Source of the DNA: an uncultured Methanosarcinales archaeon
Lineage (GTDB): Archaea > Nanobdellota > Nanobdellia > Woesearchaeales > JAGVZT01
Direction: 5' to 3'
DNA: 10,836 nt
Assembly: GCA_964419615.1 (NCBI GenBank)
Contig: CAYQPU010000038.1
Coordinates: forward strand, 1-10,836
Below, piece after piece: positions 1,064-10,769 of the stretch (within the stretch, counting starts at the first letter, position 1; each line of letters begins with the position of its first letter). The notes under the pieces are model-generated. The model had not been told where the DNA came from. It saw only the letters and a program-made list of their open reading frames with translations, and made no database searches. Position numbers and translations under genes: made by a program.

Positions 1064-2696
1064 CTTCCCTCCTCCCTATTTTTGCAAATTCTTCATCATA
1101 TTCTGGGTTATCTTTTACTCCCACAGCTTTTAGTTCACCACGATCATGTTCGAGAATTTCTGCTAGCAGTTTTTCAATTTCTCTTTCTTTTACTTCATCA
1201 AGTTCAATTAGTTCTTTTAATGCTTCACCAATGTGAGGTATGTATTTTTTAATAAAATCTCTTTTTTTAAGTTCATCACCGACATTTTTCTTTTTCTTAA
1301 CATATTTTTGAAGTTTTCTACCTGCTTCTTGCAAAGCTAATTTAACTTCGCTGATGATTTCGGGATAATGAGCTACTGCTTCTTTGCTTTCAGATGTGAA
1401 TGGTACCCAGACTGAAGAGATGTGCACAAGAATAGTTGCCGGACCAACTGGTAATGCCCCTTTACTTTGGTTAAGACCATATGCTTTCCATTTTGTTTGG
1501 AGAACTGATTTGGTTATTGAACAGGCACTTCTTTGATACATTAATGGAACTCTGTTTGCAAATCTCATTAATGTTACTTGCTTATCACCTGTTTGATCTC
1601 CACCATAAGCTATTCCTACTTCAACTGCAAAAGGATTTCCCCTATAAACTGAAGGAGAACGTGTTACAGTACAATAAAATTCAGCATTGATTTCTTTTCT
1701 AAGTCCCTTTTCTAATAATTCTTCTCCAATTGGACTGATACAATCAGTAGGTGGAGCAATTATTTTTGTTTTTTTAATTGCTTTGATTAATTTTTCAGCA
1801 TTTTCTCTTGATAATCGCTTAGGACTGTTTTTTGGTAACAGTGCTGCGTTCTCGAATATTTTTTTTGCTGTTCCAGAACCAACACTTGAGAATTCATTTG
1901 ACAAAAATGATTGTAATGTACGATACTCTGTTACATCAAGCATTTTAATTAGTCTTCCAAGCTCCACACCATAAGGATGGGGAAGGATTTCTACTGGTTT
2001 TTTTGGAAGTTTTTTGGTTACTCTTGGAAAAATAAGTTGCTCTGCACTTGGTGATGTGTATATTATTGTTGCATGTGGGTTGACTACTGCAGTATATTTT
2101 AAGTAAGAATCAACACTTCTTGGACCTTTTCTATAGGTTGCTTCAAGATCTAGCTCAACTTTTGTTCCGTGATCTTTGTCCCACTCAACAATATCATCCT
2201 TGACGATCTTTGGTTTGTTGTTCTTTGTATCAATTACTAGTTCGTAATAATGTGCAGGTGCATCTTTTGATATTTTTGATATAATCTTTGCTGGCCTGCC
2301 TGTTGTTAATTGACCATACATTACTGATGCACTTATACCAATCCCTTGCTGACCTCTGCTTTGAGAGAGTTTAAAGAATTTTGACCCATATAATAATTTG
2401 GCAAATATTTTTGGGATTTGTTTTTTTACTATTCCAGGACCATTGTCTTCTACAACAACCTTGAATCTATCTTCTCCCATGTCAATTGTTTGGATTTCAA
2501 TGTCAGGCAGAACACCTGCTTCTTCACAAGCATCAAGGCTATTGTCAACTGCTTCTTTAATTGTTGTTAGTAATGCTTTGCCAGGATTATCAAAACCTAA
2601 TAAATGTCTGTTTCTGCTAAAAAATTCTGCTATGCTAATATCTCTTTGTGATTTTGCCAGTTCATGTGCAATTGCTCCTTCAGATATTTTTACCAC
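1038..2696 (-). CDS. top6B: DNA topoisomerase VI subunit B (GHKL ATPase, H2TH and transducer domains)
   Basis: N-terminal [20 protein letters not shown]; Bergerat motifs [17 protein letters not shown] and [10 protein letters not shown]; transducer motifs RFANRVPL and [13 protein letters not shown] start overlaps the upstream KH gene by 17 bp. Confidence 0.98.
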
Positions 2697-3228
2697 CTAA
2701 CTCTCTTAGTTTTTGAACTCTCCGACTTTTTTCTAACATCTTGTATACAGTGGAGTGCATGCTTCCTTCAAGGAGCATTTCTATTGCTCTTCTTGCCAGA
2801 GCAACATTGACAACCTCACCTATTATTGAAATTGTTTTTCCATACACACTTATATTGGTTTCTGTAAATTCTTCTAGGTTCTTTCTTGATTTACCATCAC
2901 TACCAATGACTCTGCCTTTTAATCTTTTGATTTGATGAGGATTATTTATGTAGTCTTTAATGTTTAGAATATCAAAACCATAATCTTGTTTTAATAGCAA
3001 TGTTGCTGTTTCAGGATTAAATCCCCTGCCAATAGCTTTGATGATTTCCTGGGCAAGATACACTTTTACTGTATCTTCTCCCTTAACTAAAACATCTCCT
3101 TCTTCAGAATCCACCATAATGTGAGTGCTTGTGCATTCCTCTAGCTTTTTTTTCATGTTACCTTTTGTACCAATCAAAACTGCTATCCTATCTTTAGGAA
3201 TTTTTAGTCCATGCTGATATTCAACCAT
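2680..3228 (-). CDS. dim2: Tandem KH-domain RNA-binding protein, archaeal Dim2/Pno1 (KRR1-like) small-subunit biogenesis factor
   Basis: Two KH GxxG loops ([20 protein letters not shown]), the family-typical AIGRGF and GKTISIIG segments, and C-terminal [14 protein letters not shown]. Position upstream of top6B-top6A matches the usual archaeal order. GGTGA lies upstream of the ATG. Confidence 0.9.
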
Positions 3229-3251
3229 GATTCACCACTAATTAGACTGCT

Positions 3252-3266
3252 CTTTTAAATGTTTTC
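3252..3266 (-). promoter_or_regulatory. Putative BRE/TATA promoter for the KH-top6B-top6A unit
   Basis: Minus strand GAAAACA-TTTAAAAG; the first T of the TATA box (3259) is 31 nt upstream of the ATG at 3228. Confidence 0.55.
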
Positions 3267-3274
3267 TCTCTGTT

Positions 3275-3556
3275 TTACAGCTTACTTAGAAAATGATTTA
3301 GGCAGTCTTTACCGCAAAACGATCCTCTTTTTTTAAAATCTCTTCTTCCAAATTTTAGAATAAATTCATCAATATAGTATGGATTAATTTTGATGCCACA
3401 AGTTGCACACAGTTTCATATCATTGTGTTCAATGTCTGCTAATTTCTGTTTTACAAGTGTTCTTGTGTGTGATCCACCATTTTCAAGGTCTTTTCTTAAT
3501 TTCACAAGATCTTCATATTTAACATCATCAATTAGATCTCTAAAACCTTTTTTCAT
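3275..3556 (-). CDS. Small hypothetical protein with a Cys4 treble-clef (TRASH/eL24-like) zinc-finger motif
   Basis: 93 aa. C50-x2-C53 (CATC) and F-C81-x3-C85 (FCGKDC) follow a helical N-terminal half. GAGGT ribosome-binding site and a TATA box lie upstream. Confidence 0.75.
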   Translation of the reverse strand: MKKGFRDLIDDVKYEDLVKLRKDLENGGSHTRTLVKQKLADIEHNDMKLCATCGIKINPYYIDEFILKFGRRDFKKRGSFCGKDCLNHFLSKL

Positions 3557-3697: not shown

Positions 3698-4003
3698 ATG
3701 GGAATAAAAAATGAGTTTTTAGAATTCTTAAAAGAGTATAAAATACTTGGATTAGCTATTGCATTTATTATGGGCGCTGCTGCAACAGCTTTAGTTAAGT
3801 CTTTAGTTGATAACATAATTATGCCGGTTATAGCTCCAATAATTCCTGGTGGAAATTGGAAAACAGCAACATTAGTGCTAGGTCCAGTTACTTTAGGATG
3901 GGGAGCTTTTGTGGCAGAAATTATTAATTTTCTAATAATTGCACTAGTTGTGTTTTTTGTTGCAAAGAAAGTGCTTAAAGAAGAAAAAGTGGCAAAGAAA
4001 TAG
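3698..4003 (+). CDS. mscL: Large-conductance mechanosensitive channel MscL (short archaeal type)
   Basis: Amphipathic N-terminus F7-x2-F10; TM1 LAIAFIMGAAATALVKSLVDNIIMP (typical MscL pattern ..IG.A....V.SLV.DI.MP); TM2 WGAFVAEIINFLIIALVVFF; basic tail. GGGGGAG ribosome-binding site upstream. Confidence 0.93.
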   Translation: MGIKNEFLEFLKEYKILGLAIAFIMGAAATALVKSLVDNIIMPVIAPIIPGGNWKTATLVLGPVTLGWGAFVAEIINFLIIALVVFFVAKKVLKEEKVAKK

Positions 4004-4006
4004 TTT

Positions 4007-5194
4007 TTAATTTATAATGTTGTTTATTTCTTCTTTTATTCTTTTTTCAAAGTCACCAACTCTTTCTCCTTCAGTTTTCTGCTGGCTTAGCGTTTGCATT
4101 AGAGTTATGATTTTTTGCTGTTCTACTTGATTATCCCATCCTTGAATTTTTATTTGACCAGTATTTTCTTTTATTAACATTTTCTCAATTTCATCAACAG
4201 AGTTTTCAGTTACCTTTATTGCTTTGAATTCCTTTGAGCTAAGTTTACCAGTGTTTCTTAATACGGAAATAGCTCCCTTTCTTTCCAGCTCTTTTCTAAT
4301 TGTTTTGAAATCAATATCTGTTGTTTTTCCAGTTATGAGTTCTCCAAATAATCTAACTGTGACAATTGTATGGATGAATTCTTTGTTTTTAATCAATTGT
4401 TTTAACTGTGCATTTACTTGTTCACTTGTTTTTTGATTACAGTCATGTTTGATGGAATAAACACTACAAACATTTAGTGGAAAATACCTTACAACTAGAC
4501 TTGGATCAGTTTCTACAATGAAGAAACCACCTTGCTCCAAATCTTCTAATTCTTTGAATGTGTCAGGAAAAGTTGGACCAGGGTAGATTATTTTCCCATA
4601 ACTTGGGATATTTTTTTCAATTATTTGATGAATATGGCCACCGGCATAGTAATCAAAGTTTTTTGGGAATTGGCCAAGTGATATTTTTTCTATCTGGTCT
4701 AATCCAGGCATATCAATTTCACTTATTGCCGAGTGAAACATGAATATCTTAAAGCCAGATTCTGCCTCAAGTTCTTGTTTGTTTAGTTTATTGTAATCTT
4801 GTTTTTCAAGTGATCCTCTTTTGCCATGAATTCCTATGATTTTTGCTTGCTTTTCTTTGGAAAAACTTTTGTTTTCTGTAATGTCATGAACAATGCCAGC
4901 TTTGTCTAAAACACTTAGTATAGTTTTTCCACTTGGTGAATAATCATGACTTCCGGCTATTACATAGATATTGATGTTGTGATCTTTTGCTTGTTTTAAT
5001 TTTTCTACAGCTATTTTTAGACTTTCAATTGCAGGAAGCGCTGTATGAAATAAATCCCCTGAGATGAGGATAAAATCGACTGATTCTTTGATGCAGATGT
5101 CTATTGCTCTTTCAAATGCCTTTGTTGAAAGATCCCGAAGTTTAGGATCAGACCAGCTTCCAATGTGACAGTCTGCCATGTGAGCAAATTTCAT
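4007..5194 (-). CDS. mre11: Mre11/SbcD-family metallophosphoesterase DNA repair exonuclease
   Basis: Phosphoesterase motifs ADCHIG (I), SGDLFH (II), AGSHD (III; usually GNHD), MFH (IV) and GGHIH (V), followed by YPGP, a capping domain and a helical C-terminus. 395 aa fits archaeal Mre11. Confidence 0.85.
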   Translation of the reverse strand: MKFAHMADCHIGSWSDPKLRDLSTKAFERAIDICIKESVDFILISGDLFHTALPAIESLKIAVEKLKQAKDHNINIYVIAGSHDYSPSGKTILSVLDKAGIVHDITENKSFSKEKQAKIIGIHGKRGSLEKQDYNKLNKQELEAESGFKIFMFHSAISEIDMPGLDQIEKISLGQFPKNFDYYAGGHIHQIIEKNIPSYGKIIYPGPTFPDTFKELEDLEQGGFFIVETDPSLVVRYFPLNVCSVYSIKHDCNQKTSEQVNAQLKQLIKNKEFIHTIVTVRLFGELITGKTTDIDFKTIRKELERKGAISVLRNTGKLSSKEFKAIKVTENSVDEIEKMLIKENTGQIKIQGWDNQVEQQKIITLMQTLSQQKTEGERVGDFEKRIKEEINNIIN

Positions 5195-5215
5195 GCATTT
5201 GATAATGTTTTGAGG

Positions 5216-5223
5216 TATATAAA
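5216..5223 (-). promoter_or_regulatory. Putative TATA box for mre11 (leaderless)
   Basis: Minus strand TTTATATA starting 29 nt upstream of the ATG; no SD motif. Confidence 0.55.
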
Positions 5224-5270
5224 TTTGATGAAACCAATTGAATTATCATTTTAATCCTACTTGTAATTAA

Positions 5271-5286
5271 CAAAAACTTTTTAAGT
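5271..5286 (+). promoter_or_regulatory. Putative BRE/TATA promoter for the 137-aa hypothetical gene (leaderless)
   Basis: CAAAAACT-TTTTAAGT, with the TATA box about 30 nt upstream of the ATG; no SD motif. Confidence 0.5.
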
Positions 5287-5308
5287 TCAAAATATCTGCT
5301 AGAGTAAT

Positions 5309-5722
5309 ATGAAAGCACAAGAGGTTTTGGAGTGGACAAACCACCATATCAAGTTTGTGGATGCATATCATAAGAAAATTAAGGGTATGTCTGAAAACAA
5401 AGGTGTTATTTGTGTTAAGTATAAGTCTAATAAAGTTGAGCATTATTATACTACTGTAAGTTTTGAAGATGTTGATCTTGCAAAACTTGGCTCAAATCCT
5501 ATTGTTGTGCTACCAAATTCAAAACATAATTTTGATTTGCTTGTAAAAAACTGGAAAAATATTTGTAAGAATCCAGATTTGAAATTGGTTTTTTTCAATC
5601 CAAATTCAACTCTGCTGAGAAAATGGGTTATTAAACCACATATTCATAATAAGATATGTGATAAAGAATCCTTAAAAAAAGGCCTAAAGGCTATGTTTGG
5701 TACTGTTGATATCGTGGATTAG
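5309..5722 (+). CDS. Hypothetical protein (137 aa), no recognised domain
   Basis: Only long ORF between mre11 and the cupin. A TATA-like element lies about 30 nt upstream of the ATG. Composition is Lys-rich like the host housekeeping genes. Confidence 0.75.
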   Translation: MKAQEVLEWTNHHIKFVDAYHKKIKGMSENKGVICVKYKSNKVEHYYTTVSFEDVDLAKLGSNPIVVLPNSKHNFDLLVKNWKNICKNPDLKLVFFNPNSTLLRKWVIKPHIHNKICDKESLKKGLKAMFGTVDIVD

Positions 5723-6090
5723 ATCTTTTCTGGATTTGTAACAGTTCTTTCTTCTTTAACATTACCAGTGTTTACTGTTCCTTTTTTAGAGATATAGATT
5801 ATTTCTGTTTGTTTCTTTGCAGCTGTTTGATGCTCAATTCCACGCGGCATGAACAAACATTCCCCTTTTTTTAGACAAAACTCCTCTTCTCGAGTTCTTA
5901 CAATAAATTCTCCAGAGATTGTTAAAAACATTTCATCTTCATCATCATGATGATGCCATGGAAGCTCGCCCTCACATTTTGCCAACTGAACATTACAGTC
6001 ATTGAGCTCTCCAATCTTTTTTGGACTCCAGAATTCATTGAATATGGAAAGTTTTTCCGAAATATTGATTTTTTGGATTTTTTTTGTCAT
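5719..6090 (-). CDS. Cupin-domain protein (mannose-6-phosphate-isomerase-like monocupin)
   Basis: Cupin motif 1 GELPWHHHDDEDEMFLTISG and motif 2 GECLFMPRGIEH, giving a His/His/Glu/His metal site. N-terminal FNEFWSPKKIGELND and C-terminal GTVNTG are typical of a widespread small-cupin family. Confidence 0.9.
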   Translation of the reverse strand: MTKKIQKINISEKLSIFNEFWSPKKIGELNDCNVQLAKCEGELPWHHHDDEDEMFLTISGEFIVRTREEEFCLKKGECLFMPRGIEHQTAAKKQTEIIYISKKGTVNTGNVKEERTVTNPEKI

Positions 6091-6113
6091 TTTATTATTG
6101 GGGTGTATGTCAA

Positions 6114-6128
6114 TTATTTAATTTTTTG
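6114..6128 (-). promoter_or_regulatory. Putative BRE/TATA promoter for the cupin gene (leaderless)
   Basis: Minus strand CAAAAAA-TTAAATAA, with the TATA box 31 nt upstream of the ATG; back-to-back with the infB promoter. Confidence 0.5.
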
Positions 6129-6135
6129 TTAATTT

Positions 6136-6150
6136 GACAAGATTTAAAAA
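6136..6150 (+). promoter_or_regulatory. Putative BRE/TATA promoter for infB (leaderless)
   Basis: GACAAGA-TTTAAAAA, with the TATA box 30 nt upstream of the ATG; no SD motif. Confidence 0.55.
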
Positions 6151-6172
6151 CAGTTTTTGATTCTATTTTTAT

Positions 6173-7945
6173 ATGGCAGATATTAGAAGCCCTATTTGTG
6201 TTGTTTTGGGGCATGTGGATCATGGCAAAACCTTGCTTTTAGATAAGATTAGAGGTACTGCTATTCAGAGAGGTGAATCTGGAGGGATTACTCAGGCAAT
6301 TGGCGCTTCTATTATTCCTATTGATACTTTAAAACAGGTTTGTGGAAAGTTGCTTGACCAATTAAAACTTGAATTAACAATTCCAGGATTATTGTTTATA
6401 GATACTCCTGGACACGAGGCATTTACTAGTCTGCGAAAGAGAGGTGGAAGTTTAGCTGATATTGCTATTGTTGTGATTGATCTAAATGAAGGCTTTAAAC
6501 CTCAAACTCATGAGACTATTAAGATTTTACAGAATTCAAAGACTCCATTTATTGTTGCTGCTAATAAATTGGATTTGCTTTCTGGTTGGCAGGATAAAAG
6601 CGGAAAGTTGCTTTCTGATATTAATGATCAATATCCCCAGGTTAAAGAAAAGCTTGATATTAAAATTTATGAGATTGTTGGAAAGCTTGCAGAGTATGGT
6701 TTTAATTCTGAGAGATTTGACAGAGTAGATGATTATACAAAAACAGTTGGTATTGTTCCGGTTTCAGCTATGAGTGGAATTGGAGTTCCGGAGTTGTTAA
6801 TGGTCCTAACTGGCCTATCTCAACGATATCTTAACCAGTGTTTGGAGTGTCAGGTTGAAGGTCCTGCAAGTGGAACAATATTAGAAGTTAAAGAAGAAAA
6901 AGGACTAGGTGTTACTGCTGATGTTATTATTTATGATGGTACTTTGAATGTTAATGACTTAATTGTTATTGGTGGTGTTAATGAACCATTGACAACAAAA
7001 GTTAGAGCTTTGCTTGTACCAAAACCTTTAGAAGAAATGAGGGATAAGAAGACTAAGTTTCTACATGTTGATAAGATTATTGCAGCAACTGGTGTTAAGA
7101 TTGTTGCCCCAGATTTGGATAAAGCAGCAGCAGGTATGCCATTAAAAGAGGCTTCTTCAGCTGATCTTGAGGAGATTCAAGAAAAAGTTAGACAAGAGGT
7201 TGGAGAGGTTTTAATTGAGACTGATCAGGCTGGAATAGTTGTTAAGGCTGATAATCTTGGATCCTTAGAAGCATTAATTAATTTACTTAAAAAAGAAGAG
7301 ATTCCTATTAGAAAAGCGTCAATTGGCCAGATTACTAAAAAAGATATTATGGATGTGCAGGCTAATCTGGAGACTGATGCTTTGACTGCAATATTACTGG
7401 GGTTTAGTATCAGTATGAATAAAGAAGCTGAGGAATTGGCAGAGGAGTTAGGAATTCCAGTTTTTACTAATACAATTATTTACAAATTAATTGAAGATTA
7501 CCAAGAATGGATTGAGAAGAAGAAAGCTGCAAAAAAGACGGCTGAGATGATGGGTGTTGTAAAGCCATGCAAGATCAAATTATTAAAAGGATATATTTTT
7601 AGACAGAGAAATCCTGCTGTTGTTGGTGTTGAGGTGGTTAGTGGTGTTCTTAAGGTAGGTCAATCATTGATGAAAGACACTGAAGCAATCACTTTTGTTA
7701 AAACCATTCAACACGAAAAGAAAAATATTCAAGAAGCTAAAGCCGGTATGCAGGTTGCTGTGTCTCTCGATAAGATTACAATTGGAAGACAGGTTGAAGA
7801 AACAGATGTTTTGTATTCTTTTGTTTCAGAGGGAGAATTTAGAACTATGAAAAAGATAAAAGAGAATCTTAGTTCTGCTGAAATTGATCTATTAAAGGAA
7901 ATTGCTGACAAGATGAGAGAACAAAATTCTATGTGGGGAATATGA
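6173..7945 (+). CDS. infB: Translation initiation factor aIF5B (archaeal IF-2)
   Basis: Starts IRSPICVVLGHVDHGKT (G1); GGITQAIGA (G2), DTPGHEAFTSLRKRGGSLAD (G3), NKLD (G4), VSA (G5). 590 aa with no bacterial N-terminal extension and no intein. Confidence 0.98.
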   Translation: MADIRSPICVVLGHVDHGKTLLLDKIRGTAIQRGESGGITQAIGASIIPIDTLKQVCGKLLDQLKLELTIPGLLFIDTPGHEAFTSLRKRGGSLADIAIVVIDLNEGFKPQTHETIKILQNSKTPFIVAANKLDLLSGWQDKSGKLLSDINDQYPQVKEKLDIKIYEIVGKLAEYGFNSERFDRVDDYTKTVGIVPVSAMSGIGVPELLMVLTGLSQRYLNQCLECQVEGPASGTILEVKEEKGLGVTADVIIYDGTLNVNDLIVIGGVNEPLTTKVRALLVPKPLEEMRDKKTKFLHVDKIIAATGVKIVAPDLDKAAAGMPLKEASSADLEEIQEKVRQEVGEVLIETDQAGIVVKADNLGSLEALINLLKKEEIPIRKASIGQITKKDIMDVQANLETDALTAILLGFSISMNKEAEELAEELGIPVFTNTIIYKLIEDYQEWIEKKKAAKKTAEMMGVVKPCKIKLLKGYIFRQRNPAVVGVEVVSGVLKVGQSLMKDTEAITFVKTIQHEKKNIQEAKAGMQVAVSLDKITIGRQVEETDVLYSFVSEGEFRTMKKIKENLSSAEIDLLKEIADKMREQNSMWGI

Positions 7946-8382
7946 AAATCCTAAATACTCGGGATGTTAAGGAAATTATTAAACTTATTGAGAGTCAGTG
8001 GGGTGCTAAACTTAAGTTGGATCTAGCTTTTCTGCAAAAAAAGGAAAAGATTTATGTTATAACTAGAGATCTAGGAAATATTGATTATTCTTTGTTAAGA
8101 ATTAATAATGTTGGTTTGTATTTTGGACAGGTTAGAAATAATGAAATTAGACTTAGTATTGAAGGTTCACAGATTGTTGGTCCATTAGCTAACAAGAATG
8201 TTTTAAAGGTCAGTGATCAAGAATTTGAGAGTTGGATTTCTGGTGAGGATTTGGAGGTTAATTCTAAGAATCATGCTTTTGTTTTATTAAAACATAATAA
8301 TGATTTTGTTGGTTGCGGGAAACATATTGGAAATAAGGTTTTGAATTATGTTCCAAAGGGTAGAAGAGTTCAGTTGGTGTAG
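7942..8382 (+). CDS. NIP7/RsmF-C-terminal-like PUA-domain RNA-binding protein
   Basis: Motifs GLYFG, IRLSIEGSQIVG, W..GEDL, GCGK and NYVPKGRR resemble the pre-PUA/PUA module of the NIP7 and RsmF C-terminal families. I prefer the ATG at 7942, which forms an ATGA overlap with the infB stop (7943-7945), over the track's GTG at 7933. Confidence 0.75.
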   Translation: MKILNTRDVKEIIKLIESQWGAKLKLDLAFLQKKEKIYVITRDLGNIDYSLLRINNVGLYFGQVRNNEIRLSIEGSQIVGPLANKNVLKVSDQEFESWISGEDLEVNSKNHAFVLLKHNNDFVGCGKHIGNKVLNYVPKGRRVQLV

Positions 8383-10739
8383 ACTGGTTGGACCTGGAAG
8401 GTTGCTTCATCCAACATTGGTTTATCTTCTTTTTCAACTGGTACTACATAAACACACGGGATTTGATCGTATCTATCCCTGAAATGATTTCTTAATCTTC
8501 GGACCAGTTTTCCACTTCCAGTTAATCTGAAATAGTCATTAATATTTACTAGTCGCACTCCCTGTTCTAGTATTTCTTTTAGTATTTTTTTACTTACATA
8601 AACATTAACATGGTCGAGGTTTTTTTGTTCTCCAAAAACAGCACGTGGTATTGTTCTTAGCATTTCTGCACCAATGTCTCCACCATAATTCTCCCATAAA
8701 GGATATATCTTATTCCAATTATCTCCCGACATCTTCATTAAATCTTTGCTTTTATAGCCTTGAGAAAGTGTCATTATTATTTCTAACTCTGGATCTCTTT
8801 CATAATCAGTGATTAAGGTGCCAGATTTGAAATCCTTATCCATGTTTAGACCAACTTGTTCACCAATAACACTGGCAACATAAGGAATAAACGGACTTGC
8901 AAGCTGGGCAAATGCTTGCCAATATCTTTTAACAATATTTCTGTTTACTTTTTCTCCAGATCGTTCTTTCATAGAATGATACTGTTGAATGTCTTCAAGA
9001 ATACTTCCCTCATCAAAGAATAATTCTTCATATGCTTTATGAAGTCTTAGATCGGCAACAAATTCTAAAGATTTTTCCATTCTTACCATTACTCTTGACA
9101 TTAACCATTTGTCAATATCATCTTCAACAGGAGGTCTTCCTCTTCCAGTTGGACCTAATTCTACAAATAAATCATACACCCATGCAACCCTTTCACCAAA
9201 ATTTTTCAGGTGACGCTGATCAAATTTAAGATTTTGAGTAGGATTTTCTTTTCCAAGCAAGTAGAGTCTTGCAATATCTGCTGAACTTTTTGTTATACTT
9301 AAACCTTGGCTTGCTAATCTTCTAGCTCCACCATTTTCAGCAAGCTCTAATAATTCATCAATAGATACTGCATTTCCAAATGTCTTGCCCATTTTTCTTC
9401 CTTGTGTGTCTTGAACAGTTCCATAAGCAAGCAGAGCAGTTTGCATTAAATGTCCTAAATCTAAAGCTGCAATTTGCATATTACTAAATAATGCATGAGC
9501 TTCACTATGATCCCATCCCATTATGTTTATCCAGTCTCCAAATCTTGTGTGTAATTCCTGTTTTATTTCTCTAAGTGTTGAAGTGTGGACACTAGTCTTA
9601 GTTTGTAATCGTCTTCTTAAATTCAGAGGATTAATATCTAATTCTCTAAGTTGATCATCTGTTCTCAACATATAGTCAAAAAACTCTCCTTCAATCTTAT
9701 CTGCAGGAAGTCTACCTTCATGAATTGCCTGTGCTATCACATACATAAAGAAGTAACCATTACTATCCATTAACGGACCTATCACAAGAGGGAAATCTGG
9801 ATCAGAAAATCTGCTTGGTGTTCCAAGTGCGGCAGTATAGTCTCTTTGAACATTTTTTGGCTTTCTACTTGCAAATAAAGAATGGATGCTGTTTTTGTAA
9901 GTATGAGGGAGAATTAATGTACCATTTTGTCTTACTAGCGAGCTAGTTAAATCTGCAAGAGTTTGTCCGTTTTCTAATTGGGCATTATATATGATTTTCC
10001 ATCCTTCAGATAAAACAACCTCTAACTGGTGATTTCTATGACCTGTTACTTTACAATTAACTGGACCTTTGAATTTTCTATCTCCTTTTGGTCCAACAAC
10101 TTTAATGTGGTCAATGTTAGCTGCCAGGACTTCATCCATATCAGAGGTAATTTCTTTTGTGCTATCACATAAAGAACAATAACCCATCTCAGCCTGGACA
10201 AAATCAATAAAACCTTTTTCAAATAAACTATCTACCCACCATTCTGTAAATCTTTGATACCATGGTGTGATTGTTGTTAGAAAAGTTTCATCAAATTGAG
10301 ATGTATCCACATTATACATGTCCAAATATCCAATTAAACCCATACCAACATAATGTACAAAGTCAAGTGCTGCTTCATGTACAAAGCCTGCCTGTTCTGT
10401 TCCTTCTGAATTTGCATAGTCTGCTGCAATATCTTGTATATGAGGCAAAGTTTCTACTAATTTATCTAAATCAGCAGCTTCCCAGTGAAATGCTTCGGAA
10501 TCACTTGTGCCATAGGCAAGATCTGCTAAAACTGCTTCTACATGACTAAAAGAAGGAAATCCAGTTGGATGCATACCAAATGGGAAAAAAGTATCATAAC
10601 CTGCTAAATTTGAAACTCTTGATAGAAAATCTTGAATTAACAGCCCTCTAAGGTTGCCTATGTGAATTTTCTTTTTACTAGGCGTAGGATAAGCTGAGAT
10701 AATTGTTTTATACAGTTTAGCAATAATTTCCTGTAACAT
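8370..10739 (-). CDS. Highly divergent archaeal-type leucyl-tRNA synthetase-like protein (class Ia), lacking the CP1 editing domain
   Basis: HIGN at residues 26-29 and KMGKT at 449-453. Collinear LeuRS-like blocks: FPFGMHPTGFP, TT.TPWYQRFTEW, ALGTP...VIGPLMDSNGY, GRLPADKIEGEFFDY, GWDHSEAH, SADIARLY, DIDKWLMSR and LASPFIPY. An in-frame TAA lies 6 codons upstream of the ATG, so the ORF is complete within the window. Confidence 0.85.
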   Translation of the reverse strand: MLQEIIAKLYKTIISAYPTPSKKKIHIGNLRGLLIQDFLSRVSNLAGYDTFFPFGMHPTGFPSFSHVEAVLADLAYGTSDSEAFHWEAADLDKLVETLPHIQDIAADYANSEGTEQAGFVHEAALDFVHYVGMGLIGYLDMYNVDTSQFDETFLTTITPWYQRFTEWWVDSLFEKGFIDFVQAEMGYCSLCDSTKEITSDMDEVLAANIDHIKVVGPKGDRKFKGPVNCKVTGHRNHQLEVVLSEGWKIIYNAQLENGQTLADLTSSLVRQNGTLILPHTYKNSIHSLFASRKPKNVQRDYTAALGTPSRFSDPDFPLVIGPLMDSNGYFFMYVIAQAIHEGRLPADKIEGEFFDYMLRTDDQLRELDINPLNLRRRLQTKTSVHTSTLREIKQELHTRFGDWINIMGWDHSEAHALFSNMQIAALDLGHLMQTALLAYGTVQDTQGRKMGKTFGNAVSIDELLELAENGGARRLASQGLSITKSSADIARLYLLGKENPTQNLKFDQRHLKNFGERVAWVYDLFVELGPTGRGRPPVEDDIDKWLMSRVMVRMEKSLEFVADLRLHKAYEELFFDEGSILEDIQQYHSMKERSGEKVNRNIVKRYWQAFAQLASPFIPYVASVIGEQVGLNMDKDFKSGTLITDYERDPELEIIMTLSQGYKSKDLMKMSGDNWNKIYPLWENYGGDIGAEMLRTIPRAVFGEQKNLDHVNVYVSKKILKEILEQGVRLVNINDYFRLTGSGKLVRRLRNHFRDRYDQIPCVYVVPVEKEDKPMLDEATFQVQPVYTN

Positions 10740-10761: not shown

Positions 10762-10769
10762 TATTTAAA
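10762..10769 (-). promoter_or_regulatory. Putative TATA box for the LeuRS-like gene (leaderless)
   Basis: Minus strand TTTAAATA starting 30 nt upstream of the ATG; no SD motif. Confidence 0.5.

Follow-up and report, generated by a model that had tools for sequence, protein, structure and literature searches.

The described protein closest to the one discussed here is the leucyl-tRNA synthetase (LeuRS) of Pyrococcus horikoshii (1wkb/1wz2; TIGR00395), with a Rossmann core carrying HIGH-like and KMSKS-like motifs, an HxTG motif, zinc knuckles flanking the site of the CP1 editing domain, a stem-contact fold and a helical bundle. All these features are also found in P0001, the product of a minus-strand gene in a 10,836-nucleotide stretch of DNA from an uncultured archaeon of the Woesearchaeales. 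The stretch, hereafter the window, is the whole contig C38 (CAYQPU010000038.1) of the 1.48-Mb assembly G000 (GCA_964419615.1; estimated completeness, 99.4%). However, P0001 differs from the P. horikoshii enzyme in the absence of CP1 and of the N-terminal helix, in the variant motifs HIGN and KMGKT, in a remodelled C-terminal domain and in not being the sole LeuRS of its organism. It is well supported that P0001 is an accessory LeuRS paralog which has no editing domain, is maintained by selection and belongs to an old Woesearchaeal lineage.

The LeuRS of Mycoplasma mobile (3ziu), found among the sequence and fold matches of P0001, is also naturally without CP1. It is, however, of the bacterial type and, as far as known, the one LeuRS with which M. 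mobile meets its housekeeping needs, and its N-terminal match to P0001 is local only (E 5e-7). LeuRS-I of the Sulfolobaceae (Weitzel et al. 2020, as reviewed in PMC9437257) resembles P0001 in being an extra copy beside a functional LeuRS, with CP1 editing disabled or absent, an acidic, divergent C-terminal domain and maintenance under selection, and for it the activation of leucine by a CP1-disrupted or editing-less LeuRS is reported (PMC9437257). The likeness is drawn from the described features, and P0001 differs in belonging to a Woesearchaeota lineage and in having CP1 excised rather than disrupted. NmLeuRS2 of the haloarchaeon Natrialba magadii is a second cytoplasmic LeuRS with strongly reduced aminoacylation (Fang et al. 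2014, PMC4005665) and, like P0001, one of two LeuRS genes in one archaeon; in the NmLeuRS enzymes, which have CP1, a bacterial-type body is combined with tRNA-binding domains of archaeal kind, whereas P0001 is of the archaeal type without CP1. AgnB2, the self-immunity LeuRS against agrocin 84 (PMC5059758), shares with P0001 the status of accessory second LeuRS, a departure from the KMSKS motif (KQSKS in AgnB2) and the lack of an accessory domain, but it is plasmid-borne, bacterial-type, near to canonical LeuRS and toxin-linked, and no such context is found around P0001.

Domain organization, catalytic motifs and predicted structure

P0001 and the related proteins P0003, P0004, P0006 (827 aa) and P0007 (890 aa) constitute family A. 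The organization of the gene, with all features on the minus strand, is as follows.

8370..10739, minus strand: family-A gene P0001, a complete 789-residue open reading frame (ORF) for an accessory LeuRS paralog without editing domain (ORF, profile and structure matches)
10185..10721, minus strand: Rossmann fold, first half, residues 7-185, with the Y-P-T variant of FPY, HIGN and HPTG (alignment and structure)
10653..10664, minus strand: HIGN, variant of the class I HIGH motif, residues 26-29 (H26 and G28 invariant; fourth residue Asn in 4 of 5 family-A members)
10038..10178, minus strand: CP1 stump, zinc-knuckle halves CxxC (C188, C191) and C229...H234 with ~37 residues between them, at the editing-domain site of canonical LeuRS
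9330..9842, minus strand: Rossmann fold, second half, residues 300-470, with LGT, PLMDSNGY, GWDHxxxH and the KMSKS loop (alignment and structure)
9381..9395, minus strand: KMGKT, variant of KMSKS, residues 449-453 (K452 invariant in family A; first Lys in 4 of 5 members)
8850..9302, minus strand: stem-contact fold and helical 'anticodon-binding' bundle, residues 480-630 (Anticodon_1 match weak; aligns with 1wkb through residue 630)
8373..8846, minus strand: diverged, mildly acidic C-terminal domain, residues 632-789 (weak fold matches to IleRS and LeuRS C-terminal tRNA-binding domains)

An earlier note on this DNA had described a complete 789-residue ORF carrying HIGN and KMGKT, collinear with archaeal LeuRS, more diverged than a housekeeping enzyme and without the N-terminal helix that precedes the Rossmann fold. 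The frame is indeed free of internal stops, both motifs lie where listed, and comparison of the canonical consensus with the start of P0001 confirmed the absence of the KWxxxW helix of canonical enzymes. Pfam profiles gave weak class I matches (tRNA-synt_1, 38.9 bits; Anticodon_1 also weak), and among NCBIfam profiles archaeal LeuRS (leuS_arch/PRK12300) ranked first at 107-126 bits, well above the IleRS and ValRS profiles (~41-42 bits), against cut-offs of 648-677 bits. The best sequence match in the PDB is P. horikoshii LeuRS (E 3e-16). P0001 stays below the TIGR00395 equivalog cut-off of 648.5 bits, with 106.9 bits, whereas the canonical LeuRS of the same genome scores 969.8 bits.

The class Ia HIGH signature with its Rossmann catalytic domain and a KMSKS loop with the catalytic second lysine (K452) are both present. 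The second Lys in KMSKS contacts phosphate and the first, in E. coli LeuRS, contacts C75 of the tRNA (PMC5059758); P0001 has both. Twelve residues do not vary in the 36-sequence alignment, namely H26, G28, G47, H57, G60, W167, P278, G306, D325, S326, H415 and P619. The columns compared for the active site were those with a conservation of at least 85% in 25 canonical LeuRS, and statements on the pocket refer to these alignment columns. Twenty-four of the most conserved positions of canonical LeuRS are kept throughout family A, including C188, C229, Y251, R299, Y329, G447, K452, G455, D488, R491 and W545 besides the 12 residues just named. FPY of canonical LeuRS is replaced by F/Y-P-T in family A, and DST by DSN. 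Variants such as HIGQ and KMGKS also occur in otherwise full-length LeuRS that have the editing motif (P0019 and P0017).

No CP1 editing domain with a T-rich motif and conserved Asp is found in P0001, nor is the TLRPET-type (TxRPET) editing motif. The domain is cleanly excised, so that ~37 residues separate the zinc-knuckle halves instead of roughly 250-335 in normal enzymes. The alignment with P. horikoshii LeuRS jumps from positions 178/176 to 303/512, with ~335 CP1 residues replaced by ~125. The collinearity put forward in the earlier note stands; the loss of CP1 had gone unrecognised there.

An AlphaFold2 model of P0001, built from a 36-sequence alignment, has a mean predicted local distance difference test score (pLDDT) of 88.7 and a predicted template modelling score of 0.86, with pLDDT values of 55-75 for residues 650-789. 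In Foldseek the top match was P. horikoshii LeuRS (E 6e-21) and the next one human cytoplasmic LRS. The structural comparison with P. horikoshii LeuRS that the earlier note had called for was made with VIA-align and placed 1wkb at the top (Z 31.9; 522 aa aligned; root-mean-square deviation (rmsd), 3.9; 21% identity), next to 1wz2 (Z 31.8); human LRS followed at Z 28 and MetRS structures, which likewise have no editing domain, at ~Z 27. Class Ia enzymes match the fold at Z 25-32, and LeuRS, rather than IleRS, ValRS or MetRS, is the closest relative of P0001 in both fold and sequence.

The housekeeping LeuRS of the same genomes

The genome was searched for canonical leuS, ileS, valS and metS, as had been advised, and all were found. 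Contig C3 of G000 carries a canonical archaeal LeuRS (P0005; 934 aa; 969.8 bits), in which HVGH, KMSKS and the editing motif TTRPDA are present, and IleRS, ValRS, MetRS and CysRS are also encoded. P0001 is thus an extra copy, a paralog rather than the housekeeping enzyme, as had been supposed. A separate housekeeping LeuRS accompanies the family-A gene in 4 of the 4 genomes with data. It is of the archaeal type in G000, in G020, where it scores 1033 bits beside the family-A ortholog, and in G484, the genome of P0006 (975 bits), and of the bacterial type in G483, the genome of P0004, where it extends over two contig ends (C42 and C46; TIGR00396 397 + 365 + 126 bits).

In some other Woesearchaeales a bacterial-type LeuRS (PF13603, TIGR00396-like) is the only full LeuRS, as in G016 (C1:805719-808346; L047) and in G021 (C11; L048). 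The divergent sole LeuRS of these two genomes were considered as possible relatives of family A and discarded, both being bacterial-type enzymes. The occurrence of the bacterial type in some Woesearchaeales and of the archaeal type in their relatives indicates that the housekeeping LeuRS has been replaced within the order.

Relatives, phylogeny and origin of family A

A word-indexed search of 5.8 billion clustered proteins returned two relatives only, P0003 (56% identical), from a Woesearchaeota metagenome-assembled genome (MAG) of the Red Sea Suakin Deep, and P0004 (36%), also from Woesearchaeota. An exhaustive search of 1.84 billion representatives returned four proteins below E 1e-30, namely P0001 itself, P0004, P0006 and P0007, after which other LeuRS followed in graded order. 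In a sample of 201 genomes from the whole order, the same-genus G020 alone has an ortholog; the sample includes the unpublished genome G112, which gave a weak class I match only and supports no claim. G148, of the same family and with an estimated completeness of 100%, is without a family-A gene. In the family-A alignment 79 columns are invariant, among them those of TFFPFGxHPTG, TTIxP, PLxDSNxY, INIxGxxH...H and K452, as well as GN, the stem-contact AD..R.Y, D..W..S and PY, and the catalytic signature residues are conserved among relatives with identities as low as 25-29%. No description of family A was found in the literature searched, in keeping with the earlier note, whose author had recognised none. 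As a side observation, an ORF for a class Ia protein of ~1000 aa in a Thermoplasmata MAG (DATJYS010000001.1; L064, match at 3930-6266) is 21% identical to P0001 residues 7-654 and is probably the LeuRS of that organism.

The next matches after family A are P0008-P0013, a second rare set of LeuRS-like proteins from Woesearchaeota, here called group B. Group B proteins have canonical HxGH and KMSKS motifs and a shorter C-terminal domain, and they are found in other genomic contexts, but they share with family A the A-F-P-T-P-S-G and DSN variants and the absence of the N-terminal helix. Their long forms (874-896 aa) contain the LeuRS editing domain (PF13603) with T-rich and VPxHDxxD motifs, whereas in the short forms (669-675 aa) CP1 is cleanly excised as in family A.

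Two trees were built. In the 46-row posterior mean site frequency tree, family A (Shimodaira-Hasegawa-like approximate likelihood-ratio test (SH-aLRT), 100) has as its sister a clade of group B and P0017 (100). The archaeal-type LeuRS radiation includes both of them, in a position apart from the clade of the resident canonical LeuRS and separate from the bacterial-type LeuRS and from the IleRS, ValRS and MetRS outgroups. A 22-row LG+G4 tree, obtained from 586 shared columns without the editing domain, gave the same picture, with the sister relation again at SH-aLRT 100. The phmmer ranking agrees, group B being found at E 1e-18 to 1e-30 and canonical LeuRS at ~1e-12 or weaker. A recent duplication of the resident leuS as the source of family A was rejected, as the approximately unbiased (AU) test on the 22-row data does not allow family A to be joined to the resident canonical clade (delta lnL 150, p 1e-35), a result to be read by taking into account that both groups are long branches, that the group under test was named with the tree already in view and that the model of the AU test is site-homogeneous.

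Group B is broken in both reference genomes in which it was found. In G321 the gene is split into ORFs of 674 and 285 aa, 5 kb from an intact LeuRS of 955 aa, and in G266 the copy (L050, G266:C7:1010-2886) is interrupted by two in-frame TAA and is probably a pseudogene. The split copy of G321 (L049, G321:C1:66792-71624) consists of overlapping minus-strand ORFs, at 1399-3423 for the catalytic and editing parts and at 671-1528 for the anticodon-binding part, and adjoins a pyridoxal phosphate-dependent decarboxylase. It may be that an older, divergent Woesearchaeal LeuRS lineage was repeatedly displaced by other LeuRS genes, and that family A survived by a change of role.

The editing domain of group B and the F-P-T and DSN variants it shares with family A indicate that the common ancestor of the two groups handled Leu and tRNA-Leu. 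Since the editing-competent long forms of group B have them, the F-P-T and DSN variants are probably compatible with leucine. The suggestion made in the earlier note of a different substrate or a non-tRNA acceptor for P0001 found no support.

Selection and evolutionary rate

Rates of non-synonymous (dN) and synonymous (dS) substitution were compared between G000 and G020. For the family-A paralog dN was 0.317 and dS ~1.68 (dN/dS ~0.19), for the canonical LeuRS 0.317 and ~1.53 (~0.21) and for aIF5B 0.116 and ~1.25 (~0.09), where all ratios are upper-bound estimates because dS is near saturation. The family-A gene is clearly under purifying selection, about as canonical LeuRS is.

These values bear on the possibility that P0001 is a decaying, functionless relic of a displaced ancestral LeuRS, a fate that the broken group B copies of G321 and G266 and the loss of the family-A gene from G148 might bring to mind. 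Such a reading is effectively excluded, as the frames are open in 5 of 5 family-A members, dN/dS equals that of canonical LeuRS, the catalytic motifs are invariant across 25-58% identity and the fold is predicted with confidence. A pseudogene was rejected on the same grounds (dN/dS ~0.19 and conserved catalytic motifs), and the scattered decay of homologs that the earlier note had named as fatal to its proposal is not what is seen in family A. The open frame and the selection acting on it agree with the intact paralog that it had envisaged.

Proposed function of P0001

With moderate confidence, P0001 is proposed to be a second, specialised LeuRS-type enzyme, leucine-activating and proofreading-free, that acts apart from the housekeeping LeuRS. 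It would descend from an old, fast-evolving Woesearchaeota LeuRS lineage. P0001 has lost the N-terminal helix and the whole of CP1, the latter by clean excision between the zinc-knuckle halves, and has retained the adenylate-forming site (H-x-G, HxTG, DSxxY, GxDH...H and the second Lys of KMSKS), along with the helical bundle and a remodelled C-terminal domain. P0001 would still bind ATP and leucine and make Leu-AMP. The next step may be either the charging of tRNA-Leu without editing or a LeuRS-I-like use of Leu-AMP and of tRNA binding outside bulk translation.

Several observations weigh against this proposal. At greater depth family A evolves much faster than canonical LeuRS: between G000 and G484 the family-A proteins are 27% identical, as compared with 50% in the case of canonical LeuRS and 56% in that of aIF5B. 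Near-invariant canonical positions are changed in family A (Q168, QWF at 246-248, W291, C297, T327N, H423I and W432/P433), H29N is found in 4 of 5 members and ELSKS in one; given the changes at near-invariant positions, the amino-acid or acceptor specificity of family A could be altered. The C-terminal domain does not profile-match the canonical tRNA-variable-arm-binding domain (hhalign probability, 0.4%), the terminal A-x-P-x-x-P-x-I motif of canonical LeuRS is missing from the P0001 C-terminus, and the net charge of the domain is −1 to −8 across family A versus +1 in the canonical enzyme. Modelled alone (pLDDT 71) and compared with 48,161 chains, this domain matched the yeast IleRS C-terminal domain (Z 5.8), P. 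horikoshii LeuRS (Z 5.2) and IleRS2 (Z 5.1), the LeuRS match being a weak one over 78 aa with an rmsd of 3.0. The matches to the model would fit descent from the C-terminal tRNA-binding domain of class Ia enzymes, although they are not strong enough to prove it. Finally, ARAGORN and Rfam RF00005 identified 10 tRNA genes only in G000, despite its ~99% completeness.

With respect to these tRNA genes, they are located on contigs C1, C5, C12, C13, C16, C19, C20, C22 and C26; several have introns of 13-84 nt, and some ARAGORN anticodons are ambiguous ('Stop(tta)', a 4-base anticodon, 'SeC').

The divergence of the C-terminal domain is also relevant to the possibility that P0001 is a LeuRS-I-like pseudo-synthetase, which would make Leu-AMP and may bind tRNA-Leu without aminoacylating it, in a regulatory role such as leucine sensing or tRNA sequestering. 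This alternative, which overlaps with the second branch of the proposal above, is considered possible although somewhat unlikely. It has the precedent of the Sulfolobaceae protein, which makes Leu-AMP and binds tRNA-Leu without aminoacylating it, and which optimal growth requires (PMC9437257), and it would agree with the absence of CP1, the diverged and acidic C-terminal domain and the constant coexistence of a housekeeping LeuRS. However, the first Lys of KMSKS, whose counterpart in E. coli LeuRS contacts tRNA C75 (PMC5059758), is kept in 4 of 5 members, and P0001 and LeuRS-I probably reflect independent events, an independent origin being likely from their taxonomic distance.

The family-A locus

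The family-A gene adjoins a PUA-aIF5B pair in all four loci with DNA, and in G020, G483 and G484 it lies between this pair and a DUF371-PUA pair. In G000, P0001 converges on PUA-aIF5B, and upstream of the gene 97 nt of contig remain. Since a DUF371-PUA pair starts contig C27, the same arrangement is likely in G000, across the C38/C27 assembly gap. The corresponding slot of G148, with DUF371-PUA on one side and PUA-aIF5B on the other, is occupied by two ORFs of 592 and 484 aa without Pfam match (L045:6035-7813 and L045:7976-9430, both on the plus strand), so that the content of the slot appears variable. A split or remnant copy was considered for these two ORFs and rejected, neither having similarity to P0001.

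A gene for a methyltransferase-fold protein (Pfam Methyltransf_31) is found divergently upstream of the family-A gene in G020 and G484, the two copies being 30% identical (E 3e-28). The protein is rare (222-232 aa; L017:6893-7591 and L031:5182-5850, both minus strand), and a word-indexed search for a wider family returned only itself. At the P0004 locus of G483 a weak GNAT-like gene takes the corresponding position, and tblastn did not find the methyltransferase-like gene in G000, where such a partner may lie within the C38/C27 gap.

The presence of this neighbour in two distant loci, the pocket-region substitutions relative to canonical LeuRS and the loss of the canonical C-terminal tRNA-arm motif could be taken as signs of a repurposed adenylate-forming ligase. 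Such an enzyme would act on another or a non-proteinogenic amino acid, or on a non-tRNA acceptor, possibly with the methyltransferase-like protein, and has precedents among paralogs of aminoacyl-tRNA synthetases (aaRS) (PMC9437257). The idea is judged unlikely, because the pocket variants are identical in the group B proteins that have a LeuRS editing domain, the stem-contact and helical parts that bind the tRNA body are conserved, and the methyltransferase-like gene is missing at the P0004 locus and from the G000 assembly. Furthermore, no biosynthetic cluster is present; the neighbours are translation and DNA housekeeping genes, which are found also where the paralog is absent.

The rare and patchy distribution of family A would also be compatible with an inhibitor-resistant spare LeuRS, conferring self-immunity or resistance, including to inhibitors that trap tRNA in the editing site, from which an enzyme lacking that domain would be safe. 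Such a use is frequent among second aaRS copies, as exemplified by the AgnB2 LeuRS against agrocin 84 (PMC5059758) and by IleRS2 against mupirocin (PMC9437257). For family A it is considered very unlikely. The gene is found at a single conserved chromosomal position and has diverged in step with its neighbours, which suggests vertical descent with losses and not transfer. In GC content it is like the DNA around it, no genes for toxins or biosynthesis are seen nearby, and the known resistant copies, unlike P0001, stay near canonical enzymes and retain editing.

Other features of the window

Two further features flank or overlap the gene.

10762..10769, minus strand: TATA-like element TTTAAATA, 23-30 nt 5' of the P0001 ATG
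7933..8382, plus strand: convergent PUA-domain protein, 149 aa, downstream of aIF5B, in an arrangement conserved in relatives

The host-style TATA box of the earlier note is retained in part: TTTAAATA is well placed before the ATG, but motifs of this type number 4 in the window against 3.5 expected, which is not above chance. All 4 copies stand upstream of minus-strand genes. From its position alone, which is suggestive, the element is a plausible candidate archaeal promoter that would give rise to a leaderless or short-leader P0001 mRNA. The 3' ends of the PUA gene and of the P0001 gene overlap by 13 nt (8370-8382), tail to tail, and the same overlap is seen at L017 10385-10397.

The other genes of the window encode Top6A, Top6B, a KH protein, MscL, a Mre11-like phosphoesterase, a cupin, aIF5B and the PUA protein, all ordinary. 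Top6A, Top6B and aIF5B score as ordinary members of their families, in agreement with their earlier description as canonical, and GC content is uniform along the window. Two additional ORFs, at 5309-5722 (plus strand; 137 aa) and at 3275-3556 (minus strand; 93 aa), are without Pfam match, the shorter of them being rich in Cys, and an unannotated 137-aa gene also adjoins aIF5B in L018 (10291-10704).

Significance

Extra LeuRS copies with crippled editing are now found in Sulfolobaceae, haloarchaea and DPANN archaea, analogous paralogs (LeuRS-I and LeuRS2) being already known. Family A is an unusually clean case, in that excision of the editing domain has left the adenylation site in place and selection is as strong as on the housekeeping LeuRS, and its locus is constant whether the latter is of the archaeal or of the bacterial type. 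It also exposes an annotation trap, as one relative carries the label 'Leucine--tRNA ligase'. Rather doubtfully, family A may be seen as a conserved, repurposed LeuRS-derived enzyme, either a proofreading-free LeuRS for a dedicated tRNA or condition, or a ligase with a remodelled pocket, a new acceptor and a methyltransferase-like partner; if true, either form would add a new class of function to the aaRS paralogs of DPANN archaea. The family provides a compact test case for a synthetase body freed from bulk translation, and it illustrates how the replacement of LeuRS by gene transfer can leave behind a retained, re-specialised ancestral copy.

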